A stretch of 64,000 bases of DNA from Marinicella sp. (GTDB taxonomy: Bacteria > Pseudomonadota > Gammaproteobacteria > Xanthomonadales > Marinicellaceae): NCBI GenBank assembly GCA_965230295.1, contig OZ246001.1, forward strand, positions 1,536,001 to 1,600,000. The letters are read 5' to 3'. Positions 5,432-48,761 of the stretch are shown here, piece after piece. Position 1 is the stretch's first letter, and every line of letters begins with the position of its first letter. The notes under the pieces were generated by a model, which had not been told where the DNA came from, did no database searches, and saw only the letters and a program-made list of their open reading frames with translations. Position numbers and translations under genes: made by a program.

Positions 5432-5586
5432 GGAAAGCTGCTGAACAGCTTGATCCGCCGAGCCAGTTGGTGAGCCTTGCGAATCAGAGGCGAAGAGCGC
5501 GAGGTAGCATGTCATGTTCGCCGTGGTCGCTTTCACTTTTGTCAGGAACAAAAGTGAATGAAGCCCCAAGAACATTCCTTTATGTG
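5432..5586. repeat. Dispersed modular repeat element, compact copy (inverted relative to 48044-48628)
   Basis: Five sequence blocks are shared in collinear order with 48044-48628, e.g. gaatgaagccccaagaacattcctt and gcgaggtagca(t/a)gtcatgttcgcc. Confidence 0.85.
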
Positions 5587-5677: not shown

Positions 5678-5754
5678 GCGCCCATAGCTCAGCTGGATAG
5701 AGTAACTGGCTTCGAACCAGTTGGTCGGGAGTTCGAATCTCTCTGGGCGCGCCA
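5678..5754 (+). tRNA. tRNA-Arg (anticodon TCG)
   Basis: 77-nt cloverleaf: acceptor stem GCGCCCA/TGGGCGC, D-arm GCTC..GAGT, anticodon arm ACTGG-CT-TCG-AA-CCAGT, T-loop GTTCGAATC, encoded CCA. Confidence 0.96.
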
Positions 5755-5954: not shown

Positions 5955-7244
5955 TCAATGACTCTGACCCCATTGATCACTCCAACTTGTTGTATCTTGA
6001 TTCAAACTAAACCCTTTTATCTGATCCTTGCTGAGTGCGTATAAAGAAATAATGATAGATACAAGATCGGCATGAGTATTACCCACAACTCGCTTAGTAA
6101 AGTCAAATTCTGGTTTTTTACCAATTAATTCATTCAACCCTATTTTGTAAATGATTCCATTATTCAATTGTTTTACAATTTCAGGTTTAAAACAAAAAAT
6201 GAAAACGCCAAACACCCTCAACATAATTATGCCAAATCTGGTATCACTTTTTAGTCCATAACTTGCCATGGTGTGATAAATCATCAAATGCCTGATAAAT
6301 GTCTCAACCTCTCGCAAAGACAGTTGATTAGCTGCAATTAATGTGTTGAAAAATGTTTCATATCCTGATTTTGCCAAATCAGTTCTCTGAAGTAATTGAT
6401 TTCCAGATAATAGATTTTGAAAGTGTACTTTAGATGTGCTTATCACTTCCTGCTCTTGATAAACATTACCGGGTAAATTAAAACTGTATCCAATGAATTT
6501 GTCTAAATATCGTTTTGCATTAACACTACCATATGAGTGTTCAACAAAAGCCTCAATTTGTTTTAAGTTGGCAACCAATACAAACTGAACGCCCTCTACA
6601 TCGAATATATGCTTTATATTCTCAAGGACTTTTATCGTAAAGTTAGGATGGCATCTATCTAATTCATCTATGAAAATTATTAGCTGATCTGTTTCAGTAA
6701 TCTCTTTTAAAACCGCTTTCAATGCAGTGATTTTTTCTTCTGCCTTTTCATGACTCTTAAGAACGGAGTCAATCGATTTATCAATCATTTCTTTGAATGC
6801 CTGATCAAACTCATCTGGTATTCCTGCCGCGTCCTGTCTCAACAAAAATCCAACTGCTGCTCTACTGACTACACTTGTACCAAATTTCAAAACATTCATA
6901 GCTTTTTCACGAAACTCAATTTTATCGCCGCTTTGAGGCAACGAGTTTAAAATTGCAGCAAGTATGGTTGCTAGTGGTTCATTTGCATGATCTGCCTTGA
7001 AAGCATCAATGTATACTGTATGGTATGTTGTATTGTCATTTGTATCAGTAGTAGGAGATAGTTCCTTCAATAAATTTATCAACTTGTAACAGAATTCAGT
7101 TTTACCCACACCCCAGTCACCATCAATTATTAGCGGGCTAACTGGTATTTCTGATTTAAGCAATTTGATAGTTTTAATAGCAATTGACCGTCTCCTGAAC
7201 TCATCCCTATCAGAGAATTGTAATGAGCTTTGGTCTTCTTTCAT
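5955..7244 (-). CDS. KAP-family P-loop NTPase
   Basis: Walker A GDWGVGKT, Walker B IIFIDELDRC, and the YLDKFI motif. Confidence 0.85.
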   Translation of the reverse strand: MKEDQSSLQFSDRDEFRRRSIAIKTIKLLKSEIPVSPLIIDGDWGVGKTEFCYKLINLLKELSPTTDTNDNTTYHTVYIDAFKADHANEPLATILAAILNSLPQSGDKIEFREKAMNVLKFGTSVVSRAAVGFLLRQDAAGIPDEFDQAFKEMIDKSIDSVLKSHEKAEEKITALKAVLKEITETDQLIIFIDELDRCHPNFTIKVLENIKHIFDVEGVQFVLVANLKQIEAFVEHSYGSVNAKRYLDKFIGYSFNLPGNVYQEQEVISTSKVHFQNLLSGNQLLQRTDLAKSGYETFFNTLIAANQLSLREVETFIRHLMIYHTMASYGLKSDTRFGIIMLRVFGVFIFCFKPEIVKQLNNGIIYKIGLNELIGKKPEFDFTKRVVGNTHADLVSIIISLYALSKDQIKGFSLNQDTTSWSDQWGQSH

Positions 7245-7308
7245 TGAGCTTCTCCTTTATTGATTGAATGCTATTTTTTGTAAGATTGTTTTGAGTTTCA
7301 AAGCGAAA

Positions 7309-8496
7309 TTATTCTATTTTTGGATTTTGTTTTGAAATATTTTCTTCTTGTTTTAACTCATTCAACTTTTCAGAAAATTTTTCACATTTGATTGACTTTG
7401 GTTTTTTATTTTCTTTTGATGCAGCATTCAATTTTCTGCTGGAAATAATGCTTTTTGGAATTTCATAAGTCCCACAGTCTGGATTGTCTTGGATTTTCAC
7501 ATAGAGATGATTTCCGACATCAAGCATGACTAACAAGTTAACAGACTGTCTTGTTGAGCTTTCGTCAATCAACTCAGGAAACAAATTGTCTTTACTGGGG
7601 TTATTTAACATTAAAACTGTGACCGCCTTACCACCACCGATATTCATTGCATTCATTGCAAAACCAGCGTAAGAAAATTTGAAGAATTGAGGGTTTAACA
7701 AAAGCATCCACAAAAAAGCAGAAATGATGGCCGTAACTTTCAGATAGTCTTTGAATGACTTTCTTTCTCTGTTTTCTCCAGGTACTGTGAAAAAATATAA
7801 TATGACCAGCAAAGCAATAAACATGAAAGATATGATCACTATTTGAATGGTCGAAGAAGTGCTATTTGAAATACCGAACTCATTTAATGCTCTTAATATG
7901 ACATACGCAATTGACACCAGCCAAAATACTGATAAGAAAACAAGCATGAAATTTAGTATCGCTTCTAAAACATTTTGACCATTCATTTCTTCTTCGAGAG
8001 ACAAGAACAGGACAATTAACAAATGAACAATAAGAACCACATATACCCAGTAACTTTTGTTCGATAGTGCAATCGCATAAAAAACAACAGGTATTACGAT
8101 TGTTGCCAGATAAACCCAAAACCCACTCCTGTTACGATGACGTTTAATGTTTATTTTCTGCCAAAATGAAGGTTCCTCAGGCAGTTGTTTCCGGTTTTCG
8201 AACATGATCAGCCATGATTTTTCCTCACGATAAAATGTAGGTACTATCAGGAATAGCGACATATACACAACAATGAAGAATGAAATGCCAAAAATAGCCA
8301 GCAAAAGTGTGGGCAATGAAGATAATGAGATTGGCAATGGAATGTTGTGTTGTTTTACGTATAAAACCAAACTAAGAAAGGCTAATATGGTTCCTATGCT
8401 TAAACTTTTTTTAATCAGGTCAAAAACTACAGAAGCGTTTTGGTTTATGGAACCAAGTTCAATCCATAAGTTATCTTTATCTCTTTTTTCTTCCAT
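7309..8496 (-). CDS. Multi-pass membrane protein, unknown function
   Basis: 395-aa ORF with about 7 hydrophobic segments and an AGAGG RBS. Confidence 0.75.
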   Translation of the reverse strand: MEEKRDKDNLWIELGSINQNASVVFDLIKKSLSIGTILAFLSLVLYVKQHNIPLPISLSSLPTLLLAIFGISFFIVVYMSLFLIVPTFYREEKSWLIMFENRKQLPEEPSFWQKINIKRHRNRSGFWVYLATIVIPVVFYAIALSNKSYWVYVVLIVHLLIVLFLSLEEEMNGQNVLEAILNFMLVFLSVFWLVSIAYVILRALNEFGISNSTSSTIQIVIISFMFIALLVILYFFTVPGENRERKSFKDYLKVTAIISAFLWMLLLNPQFFKFSYAGFAMNAMNIGGGKAVTVLMLNNPSKDNLFPELIDESSTRQSVNLLVMLDVGNHLYVKIQDNPDCGTYEIPKSIISSRKLNAASKENKKPKSIKCEKFSEKLNELKQEENISKQNPKIE

Positions 8497-46258: not shown

Positions 46259-46373
46259 TTGTACTCCTGTTCCACCCGAACATGAAGGGATCTTGATGCT
46301 GATCACACAGTTGATTGATATCAGCAACAAAAAGGTTTAAATCAAGCGCCAAGCGCTCATGAATAAGCCTCCT

Positions 46374-46671
46374 CAGGTCGGTCTCCGGACTCGAAGTAAG
46401 GATAGTTCCGTGGCCACTTCTTTCACCGGTGGTGAAAGTCGTAACCACTTCCCATACTTGAATGAGCCGCCTTTTTGTCTCGCTGAGCGATTCAAAAAGT
46501 CGGCATGCTTCTTGCATGGGTTTAACCATCCAAAATCAACGGCCTTCCCATGATAATCACAGTGGCGTGTTCGTTGATCGTTTACTACTTACCGTTGCGG
46601 GGGCAGTGTTGGCTTTGAAATAGATGATTTCGCACCGACTTCCCGTTTAACCTGACTGATGTCAGGACCTG
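46374..46671 (-). promoter_or_regulatory. Cobalamin riboswitch with a large internal insertion
   Basis: Minus strand reads CAGGTC..AAACGGGAAGTCGGTGCG..CTGCCCCCGCAACGGTAA..GCCACTG..GGGAAGG..GAGTCCGGAGACCGACCTG. Confidence 0.9.
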
Positions 46672-46892
46672 CAGGTAGGTGCGCACATGCTATATAGAGC
46701 CTGCTCAGAAGTCAATAAACAATTGATTTGTCTGTTGTAGAGTGACCTTTGTGGGCTGTTTTGATTGCTATTATGGGTTTCTAGATAAGCAGTGAAGTGG
46801 TCTTCAGGTGTGGGCTTTTGTTGAATGACCCGGCACAAACCCCTGTCACCTACGTATTAGAAGAGCGACAGGGTGCGACTTAGACTTATTAT

Positions 46893-47903: not shown

Positions 47904-48043
47904 GGTTAACTCCTGATGTTGCTGCTGGTAAATGATTCCATAAACATGGTCATGATTACACTGAAATCAATGCCAGATGTTATAAATGAAACCAAATTGT
48001 GAACCCTGTGACAGCCCGTTGCCAGCCGAATCACCACATGCTT

Positions 48044-48628
48044 ACATATAAGGAATGTTCTTGGGGCTTCATTCTGGCTCATGGTCTGAGCAGTTGCTTC
48101 GCACTGCATGTCTGTTTCAGACAAAAGAGAAAGCGACTGCTTACATGGATGTAAGTATGCAGCGATAGCAGGCAGGAATTGTTCCCAACAATTCTCTGCA
48201 TTCACCCCGTCCTGGGGATCGATGTGGTAGCTGCCGAGGCGAACATGACTTGCTACCTCGCACGCACTGCGGCATTCAAATCGGGCTTCTTTATCTTCGA
48301 TAAAACCGCCCAACTTTCATTGCCTGTGCTATAACGCCATTCACATAAGGCTTCTTGACTTCGTCAAATCACCATATGCTCATTGGCTATTCTCTTCGCC
48401 TCTGATTGGCTTACATGGAAGTAAGTCCTCTGAGGAGGCAGGATGCCGGTATCAGAGGTGACTACATGGATGTAGGTCTGCCGCGATAGCTAGGAGCGAT
48501 AGCGGCCGCTATAACAAAAGCTCACGGCTAATCAATCATTACATCAAGGCTTCTTTGCTTTGCAAAATCGCCATGATTGCATGATTTGCCTAACCAGCTC
48601 GACGGGTCAAGCTGCTCAGCAGCTTTCC
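48044..48628. repeat. Dispersed modular repeat element, expanded copy
   Basis: Blocks 48050-48074, 48120-48137, 48238-48261, 48392-48407 and 48592-48628 match the reverse complement of 5432-5586 in order, separated by hairpin-rich inserts. Confidence 0.85.
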
Positions 48629-48735
48629 TTAGTTACGAATGCACGTTCTGCGATGAATGTAATGTCCAAACCTTCAACTTTGTCTGCCCTGATTGTGGCG
48701 GGGAATTGGTCAAGCGACCCAGTCGAATCAAGTCT
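48629..48735 (+). pseudogene. DUF1272-family remnant (5'-truncated, frameshifted)
   Basis: Reads SYECTFCDECNVQTFNFVCPDCGG and then, after a frameshift, ELVKRPSR. Begins immediately after the repeat element. Confidence 0.65.
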
Positions 48736-48761
48736 GATTGAGCCGCTTTAAGGTGTTTGAA

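Follow-up and report, generated by a model that had tools for sequence, protein, structure and literature searches.

A mosaic, non-coding repeat family of Marinicella with a conserved fold and a putative single-stranded route of movement

Interspersed repeats such as repetitive extragenic palindromic (REP) sequences, bacterial interspersed mosaic elements (BIMEs), BOX, enterobacterial repetitive intergenic consensus (ERIC) sequences and miniature inverted-repeat transposable elements (MITEs) are common, and for many of them the mobilising enzyme and the role of structure are unsettled. Here we describe a repeat family of the genus Marinicella, two copies of which lie in a window of 64,000 nucleotides, that is, the whole stretch of DNA that was analysed, at positions 1,536,001-1,600,000 of the single 4,008,074-bp contig of one genome (G000; the other Marinicella genomes compared, some of them drafts, are numbered G001, G002 and so on). 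The compact copy occupies window positions 5432-5580 on the minus strand (149 nt) and the expanded copy 48050-48628 on the plus strand (579 nt). The family reaches a high copy number, inserts precisely without target-site duplications (TSDs) or terminal inverted repeats (TIRs), is polymorphic between filled and empty sites, and combines a covarying, strand-specific fold with a replication-linked orientation bias and the lack of a co-occurring recognisable transposase. We regard its nature as a mobile non-coding repeat family as all but certain. Moreover, we think it probable, with fair room for doubt, that it is a structured, mosaic, non-autonomous element moving via a putative single-stranded DNA intermediate; for the single-strand mechanism taken alone, the scales are roughly even.

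Several described systems come close to this family. PATEs are non-autonomous IS200/IS605 derivatives. A REP unit is recognised by its short palindrome, which has a conserved tetranucleotide on its 5′ side, for instance GTAG, and occurs singly or as an inverted pair. The ERIC sequences, or intergenic repeat units (IRUs), of enterobacteria comprise a short consensus element and longer variants with insertions at fixed internal sites, an organisation also found in the Marinicella family; however, ERIC is one long imperfect palindrome, the fold of our family is multi-branched and strand-specific, and the two have no sequence similarity. The active strand of IS608 and ISDra2 is excised and inserted preferentially when it lies on the lagging-strand template (PMC5027513), and RAYT enzymes (REP-associated tyrosine transposases, TnpAREP) have been proposed to act on single-stranded DNA (PMC6006769, PMC3333891). 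Pneumococcal BOX elements (boxA-boxB(n)-boxC) are modular, span 67-637 bp, carry chance open reading frames (ORFs) on both strands and have ends which form TIRs similar to those of ISSpn2 (PMC3049150). The Marinicella elements resemble BOX in their span of 79-633 nt, their fixed end modules, optional internal modules and chance ORFs, but their ends are unrelated to each other, they carry four different modules at four fixed sites instead of tandem copies of one unit, and they share no sequence similarity with BOX. Overall, the family works most like the single-strand (HUH-type) elements and the REP/BIME mosaics and is built like BOX, yet it lacks the defining traits of each of them.

The original prediction, made from the window sequence, had proposed that five blocks of the reverse complement of 5432-5586 recur in the same order within 48044-48628, separated by hairpin-rich inserts. 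Direct reading and a global pairwise alignment bear this out: the two stretches align in order, and 139 of 150 aligned compact positions are identical. The block pairs are 5580-5557 with 48050-48073 (24/24 identical), 5552-5526 with 48111-48137 (23/27), 5522-5499 with 48238-48261 (23/24), 5498-5480 with 48391-48409 (17/19) and 5463-5432 with 48597-48628 (29/32). The stretches between the blocks of the long copy measure 38, 100, 130 and 181 nt and hold many local hairpins, as had been proposed (energy fold, z = -4.29 against 100 shuffles). The copies are thus real, but their predicted limits included six bases of flank on one side, 5581-5586 and 48044-48049, which differ at other copies. On its minus strand the compact copy starts with AAGGAATGTTCTTGGGGCTTCATTC and finishes with ...GGATCAAGCTGTTCAGCAGCTTTCC, and the same start and finish bound 48050-48628 on the plus strand, which places the element ends at 5432-5580 and 48050-48628.

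These two copies had been taken for a lone pair, which they are not. With the two elements as queries, 445 blastn high-scoring segment pairs in G000 merge to 124 loci, which cover 30,468 bp or 0.76% of the genome, so that the argument against function from a mere two copies does not apply. A 25-nt head motif occurs 129 times at six or fewer mismatches and a 24-nt tail motif 135 times, compared to 0-3 matches for each of six shuffled control motifs; the family is therefore far beyond chance. When each head was paired with the nearest co-oriented tail, 72 complete elements resulted; 57 heads and 16 tails remained solo. The complete elements span 79-633 nt, and 21 of the 72 are no longer than 175 nt. 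Several sizes recur, namely 149 nt (14 copies, among them the compact window copy), 236 nt (7), 356 nt (3), 420 nt (3), 453 nt (2), 485 nt (2) and 633 nt (7), alongside many singleton sizes between 79 and 620 nt. Some of the solo heads belong to diverged subfamilies with CAGCTCTCC tails; in others, e.g. G000 205224-205256 and 918510-918538, the head folds back into an 8-bp hairpin (AAGGAATG...CATTCCTT) and the rest of the element is absent. Furthermore, in a 167-nt element of G000 (contig C1, 701206-701372) a terminator-like core is bounded on either side by the family head, the two heads being inverted, so that the head module serves here as an inverted repeat in another context; a partial relative lies at about 1,049,366.

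The wide size range results from the presence or absence of four hairpin-rich modules in many combinations. On a 633-nt reference copy, the common blocks are the head (R1-25), block 2 (R118-142), block 3 (R243-266), block 4 (R397-415) and the tail (R597-633), and the modules between them are M1 (R26-117), M2 (R143-242), M3 (R267-396, split at 335/336) and M4 (R416-596, split at 466/467). Module boundaries are sharp, most module combinations occur among the 72 elements, and 73 of 633 columns are variable among the eight copies of at least 620 nt. The expanded window copy differs from the 633-nt form in lacking one hairpin of M1 (54-55 nt) that is flanked by GTCTGA direct repeats. According to the module map, and for the blocks also the alignment, it consists on the plus strand of the head block (48050-48074), the truncated M1 (48075-48112; 92 nt in the full form), block 2 (48113-48137), M2 (48138-48237), whose 100 nt form REP-like hairpins in the fold, block 3 (48238-48261), M3 (48262-48391, 130 nt, M3a and M3b), block 4 (48392-48410), M4 (48411-48591, 181 nt, M4a and M4b), which takes the place of the small apical hairpin found in compact copies, and the tail block with its terminal hairpin (48592-48628). 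The long forms of up to 633 nt would thus be the same core with up to four modules, placed between the strands of core helices or instead of the apical hairpin, and mixed forms may have arisen via gain and loss of modules or by recombination in the common blocks.

Compact elements matched in 18 of 23 other Marinicella genomes, at 20, 20 and 21 places in G021, G019 and G016. The single genome of the sister genus gave no match, 16 genomes of the order's other families gave one weak match (E 2.7e-5), and a sample of 299 other genomes from across the class gave none (E ≤1e-6, with only two candidates per genome scored). When one genome per species was scanned for exact occurrences of the head motif, four stretches came up, two in Marinicella gelatinilytica and one each in metagenome-assembled genomes (MAGs) labelled uncultured Marinicella and "Proteobacteria bacterium". 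Plasmid and phage collections held no match (blastn, "distant" mode). At gathering thresholds Rfam recognised only a tRNA and a cobalamin riboswitch in the whole window, and at E ≤10 both elements gave only chance-level snoRNA and miRNA matches far under the cut-offs; the original prediction had not recognised the family either, and an Rfam match, which would have removed its novelty, was found at neither threshold. Among the papers listed by a single literature search, none dealt with genomic repeats in Marinicella. On these comparisons the family is genus-specific to Marinicella. Relatives of M2, M3 and M4b occur in other species at 66-89% identity: M2-related sequence in G015 and G003, M3b-like sequence in G019, G016, G014, G001 and G002, and M4b plus tail in G019 and G021 (76-86% identity). 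Since the module-bearing genomes G015, G003 and G018 gave no compact-element match, the modules are older, independent small REP-like repeats of the genus. The full 579/633-type composite was absent from the other genomes compared and looks specific to G000. Filled and empty sites (below), the mixing of modules, and the occurrence of M2, M3 and M4 in species without the head-to-tail element together support one of the two originally proposed readings, a non-autonomous mobile element which gathers other palindromes.

The other originally proposed reading, a structured RNA with a conserved core and expansion segments, captures the anatomy well, but RNA is not the medium that we favour. We aligned 41 compact copies, the window copy and 40 from ten other genomes with 71-88% identity to it, and this covariation analysis, which had been suggested at the outset, yielded an RNAalifold consensus of 38 pairs in seven helices with compensatory changes in 18 of the 38 pairs. 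Helix 1 pairs the head (ATGTTC TTGGG) with block 3 across a distance of about 50 nt (alignment columns 12-22 and 61-73). Four of its ten pairs are compensatory, with pair types such as AU:26/GC:15, UA:27/CG:6/AU:4, UA:23/CG:15 and CG:33/UA:6, and the rare head variants ATGCTC and ATGTCC of G000 co-occur with GAGCAT and GGACAT in block 3. In the window, the head block (AAGGAATG...CATTC) lies at 5556-5580, with element positions 6-16 as 5′ strand of helix 1, and the 3′ strand at 5514-5526 (block 3, ...GGCGAACAT), all on the minus strand. Helix 2, the 11-pair stem of hairpin B (5532-5558, minus), has 99.3% of cells paired and four pairs with compensatory changes. Two short, three-pair long-range helices, 3 and 4, connect blocks 3-4 with the tail block and covary, helix 4 in 3/3 pairs; in the window they lie within 5456-5499 (minus), 5499-5497 pairing with 5458-5456 and 5491-5489 with 5464-5462, and they enclose a near-invariant stretch, CTCTGATTCGC..GCTCACCAAC. 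Helix 7, the tail hairpin at 5435-5451 (minus), stands 3 nt from the 3′ end of the element and shows compensatory changes in 5/7 pairs. The blocks first noticed in the window are thus the strands of helices 1, 3, 4 and 7. The 149-nt compact form would accordingly be described as a self-folding unit with its structure on one strand, from head to tail, built of the long-range helix between head and block 3, hairpin B, the two short long-range helices and the terminal hairpin.

Controls agree with this fold. In the consensus structure 98.1% of cells are paired compared to 89.3% in shuffles, with 0/500 shuffles as high, and 131 cells carry double changes compared to a shuffled mean of 33. When partners were slid by 1-3 columns, only 3-5 compensatory pairs and 34-51% pairing were left. 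The alignment contains 116 G.U cells, three pairs being near-fixed, against 17 scattered A.C cells, which identifies the head-to-tail strand as the folded one; of the two strands it also has the better fold (z -3.45, against -1.96 for the complement). In relation to the fold, M2 and M3 sit at junctions between helix strands, M4 stands in place of the small apical hairpin and M1 in place of the 5′ strand of hairpin B. The conservation of the blocks suggests that the long-range helices also form in the long forms. The minimum-energy fold of the 579-nt copy contains local hairpins only and is no test of these helices. A closing stem of the first and last bases (GGAA/TTCC), which appeared in a single-sequence fold, was rejected, as it is absent from the consensus fold and variant ends are inconsistent with it.

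The expanded window copy interrupts a gene. It splits a DUF1272 gene at position 25 of the PF06906 profile, 47986-48048 corresponding to positions 4-24 and 48631-48738 to positions 26-57. The 5′ fragment (47986-48049, plus) has 21 codons, then a TAA that spans the boundary between gene and element head, and the 3′ fragment spans 48629-48741 (plus; E 8.2e-14). Six relatives carry an intact DUF1272 gene beside the same SDR (short-chain dehydrogenase/reductase) gene, reading ...[IM]CS[YF]ECTFC..., while a regular expression for the intact gene had no match in the other 14 loci, G000's own included. When rejoined, the flanks restore the intact gene length, and they depart from the DNA of the closest relative in a single base, the first of the Cys codon. 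Moreover, a 303-nt contig of the public sequencing run X2 joins 48047 to 48632 via five letters, with two differing letters among 261 aligned, and its translation reads intact across the junction (...AYICGYEC...); a near-identical strain therefore has an empty DUF1272 site. A clean filled/empty pair comes from a compact element which is present in G001 and missing from G002 (contig C3), where the flanks rejoin exactly at CAATAAAA^ATGGCC. At two more G001 sites the element is absent from G002, and there the intergenic DNA is too diverged for the junction to be read. Elements also mark rearrangement breakpoints: between locus L004 (G001, contig C1) and L092 (G002, contig C9), which come from two Marinicella species and share 93% DNA identity in this region, synteny breaks exactly at an element, of which the G002 side keeps only the last 20 nt of the tail.

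As regards insertion sites, the 72 pairs of flanks revealed neither TSDs nor TIRs; the first impression that no transposase or TIR is visible was right. The head and the reverse-complemented tail are unrelated except for GGAA/TTCC. The 5′ flank is merely A/T-rich, with A at -3 in 51/72 elements, and the 3′ flank has G at +4 in 55/72 elements of G000 and in 31/40 copies across the genus. The +4 base of the expanded window copy is G (48632) and that of the compact copy, an exception, is A (5428); in the clean empty site the G is part of the target. One G001 site had hinted at insertion beside terminators or other hairpins, a candidate that we dropped since the folding energies of the flanks (n = 72) are like those of 1,500 intergenic sites picked at random (p = 0.55 on the left, p = 0.62 on the right).

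The orientation of the elements follows replication. With the origin at the GC-skew minimum (1.71 Mb, beside dnaA at 1,721,237) and the terminus at about 3.82 Mb, the folded strand of 54 of the 72 elements has leading-strand sense and so belongs to the lagging-strand template. This proportion departs from an even split with p = 2.6e-5 and from the 60% reached by genes with p = 0.011. It is skewed the same way in every size class (17/21, 26/37 and 11/14) and when the settings for origin and terminus are moved (52-54/72), and the bias is also seen between convergent or divergent genes (24/34) and between lagging-strand genes (11/13). The same preference for the lagging-strand template marks IS200/IS605 elements (PMC5027513), and the match with IS608 and ISDra2 favours a structure which acts in single-stranded DNA. 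Further likenesses to IS200/IS605 are the lack of TIRs and TSDs, subterminal hairpins and one active folded strand. Both window stretches are copies of one Marinicella-specific non-coding, non-autonomous mobile DNA family. In the reading that we favour, its elements would move as single strands laid bare on the lagging-strand template, and an enzyme that recognises their structure and acts in trans may cut and rejoin them there, in principle like the peel-and-paste movement of IS200/IS605. If this holds, the family would be a tractable case for a new mobilising activity and for a folded DNA core that tolerates nested modules.

Several observations weigh against such a single-strand movement. 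The orientation bias is 75%, not absolute, and the 57 solo heads have none (31:26). At the DUF1272 site (48044-48049 and 48629-48633), the filled allele (..CATAT/TTAGT..) and the empty one of X2 (..CAT TTGTG GT..) disagree at three of some six bases adjoining the junction, which is too many for chance at a divergence of about 1% (the strain is ~99% identical elsewhere); the changes could be associated with insertion or excision or reflect an imported allele. The family lacks the conserved 4-5-nt target 5′ of the left end known from IS200/IS605 and has instead the G at +4 on the 3′ side. Regarding enzymes, IS110, RVT_1, the TnpB zinc ribbon and DDE_Tnp_1 had no match in G000 (controls were positive, that for RVT_1 with a match in 3 genomes), and the IS91 model NF033538 scored above its cut-off in 0/24 Marinicella genomes, with one weak match in G022; the Pfam Y2_Tnp profile is uninformative, because its control matched no genome. 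The sole rve gene of G000 is single-copy and has no head-like ends, and no protein gene of this genome is multi-copy save spurious ORFs inside the elements. The only HUH gene of G000, a RAYT-like Y1 gene (contig C1, 1669261-1669824; locus L001 1300-1863), has no family member within 10 kb and is flanked by small hairpin repeats of its own (GTTGACTTCAGTCAAC and related ones), the upstream one with about nine further genomic matches. Finally, Y1_Tnp lacked a match in 8/24 genomes, including the element-rich G021 (99% complete), G019 and G016, although drafts may miss genes. Eight tyrosine-recombinase matches were also recorded in G000. An autonomous parent was looked for as well and dismissed: heads and tails 0.9-8 kb apart are neighbouring separate elements, and no head...tail pair in G000 encloses a gene.

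Two alternatives deserve a closer look. The first is a structured non-coding RNA family or a cis element at the RNA level, such as a transcript stabiliser or processing site, whose DNA copies spread secondarily. The strong covariation including long-range helices, the strand-specific G.U pairs and the arrangement of a core with expansions, which is typical of large RNAs, all suit an RNA, and the near-invariant CTCTGATTCGC..GCTCACCAAC, mostly unpaired in the consensus fold, looks like a possible binding site in this model. However, single-stranded DNA forms G.T pairs as well, so the wobble pairs fit either medium. Relative to the two flanking genes the elements show no preferred orientation (++ 21, +- 20, -- 17, -+ 14), with the upstream gene co-oriented in 41/72 and the downstream gene in 35/72 cases; their orientation tracks replication instead. 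Furthermore, the consensus, read by eye, has no conserved promoter and no T-run past the tail hairpin, one copy inactivates the DUF1272 gene, and at E ≤10 no Rfam family matched. A reverse transcriptase that could copy RNA into DNA is also missing: RVT_1 found nothing in G000, and Rfam returned no intron or retron. We consider this RNA reading unlikely.

The second alternative is a REP/BIME-type system, in which the single RAYT-like Y1 enzyme of G000 mobilises the elements. The gene is the only enzyme of the HUH single-strand type found in this genome and matches NCBIfam REP_Tyr_transpos (E 1.6e-18); a hairpin core beside it, TTGACTTC(A)GTCAA, resembles the M3b sub-module, and the family shares with REP, BIMEs and REPINs the abundance of mostly intergenic hairpin repeats in mosaics as well as a single-copy Y1 gene in the genome. 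REP/RAYT systems act on folded single strands, without TSDs, and form mosaic BIMEs (PMC3333891, PMC6006769). On the other hand, the REP_Tyr_transpos score of 67 bits is below the cut-off of 80 bits, and it is the different small hairpin repeat, with no family member in 10 kb, that flanks the gene. Only three other genomes have close homologues of the Y1 gene: those of G023 and G003 contain an in-frame TGA, and that of G012 is a fragment. The homologue-bearing G003 gave no compact-element match. Pfam Y1_Tnp matched in 16/24 Marinicella genomes; the lack of a match in the element-rich G021, G019 and G016 makes the link to a RAYT less likely, with the reservation that drafts can miss genes. The elements are also no simple GTAG-plus-hairpin REPs, as their unit is an asymmetric seven-helix fold of 149 nt and not a palindrome of 20-40 nt or an inverted pair. 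With the Y1 gene outside a REPtron arrangement with the family and no co-occurrence across the genus, the family is not of the REP/RAYT type by the criteria excerpted from PMC6006769, and mobilisation by this enzyme seems improbable to us. In G000, the search for RAYT/TnpA, IS110 and reverse transcriptase genes proposed at the outset was positive only for this one gene, which has no family member nearby.

As regards IS200/IS605, G000 gave no match to TnpB and no clear case of an IS200-type TnpA, its RAYT-like Y1 gene scoring 23.7 bits against NF033573 transpos_IS200 (cut-off 55 bits), and the fold with its many helices and long-range pairs differs from the two separate end hairpins of IS200/IS605; with no clear IS200-type TnpA and no 5′ target tetranucleotide the family probably does not belong there. 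The most far-reaching version of a single-strand movement would be a transposase-orphan element of a novel type, in which a single strand of ~150 nt folds into a multi-helix junction that tolerates nested cargo modules at fixed sites. Its excision and reinsertion at the replication fork would fall to a host enzyme of replication or repair, or else to an unrecognised protein family, with no dedicated transposase of a known class. We put this forward as a speculative idea that is rather unlikely to be right. Least of all do we believe in a classical MITE, derived by internal deletion from an insertion sequence with a DDE transposase: the small size, high copy number and mostly intergenic position, and the TIR-like inverted heads of the 167-nt element at 701,206-701,372, would fit, but the two ends of the 72 elements are unrelated and target duplications are absent, in the clean filled/empty pair the flanks rejoin exactly and the DUF1272 flanks rejoin to the intact gene length, DDE_Tnp_1 had no match and the single rve gene is unrelated, and no parent with these ends was found in G000, relatives having been searched less than exhaustively. 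The absence of TIRs, TSDs and a parent insertion sequence sets the family apart from MITEs and BOX alike. We have filed it as a small non-autonomous interspersed repeat, notable for its covarying long-range fold, fixed module sites, replication-linked orientation and orphan status.

The family has practical consequences, as it breaks at least one gene, creates spurious ORFs of about 110-165 aa, and coincides with a rearrangement breakpoint in at least one comparison of related genomes; draft assemblies of Marinicella are probably fragmented by it. Coding readings were rejected for both forms: a 61-aa sense ORF of the compact copy is ruled out by length differences of 1 and 2 nt among copies, and antisense ORFs of 107-165 aa in long copies have no Pfam match and no codon periodicity, their variable sites being distributed 9:8:8 over the three phases. 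Such antisense ORFs are found at window positions 47906-48313 (minus) and at 11 paralogous places of G000, and gene finders would call them as a multi-copy "hypothetical protein" family.

Among the other features of the window, the cobalamin riboswitch lies at 46359-46688 on the minus strand (RF00174, 86.4 bits). The tRNA-Arg(TCG) at 5678-5754 (plus) is 98 nt from the compact copy. Past this tRNA, 5955-8496 (minus) holds a 429-aa ORF with a weak match to a QatA-like ATPase (46 bits, cut-off 600), followed by a 395-aa membrane-like ORF, and these tRNA-adjacent ORFs may represent a small defence or accessory islet.

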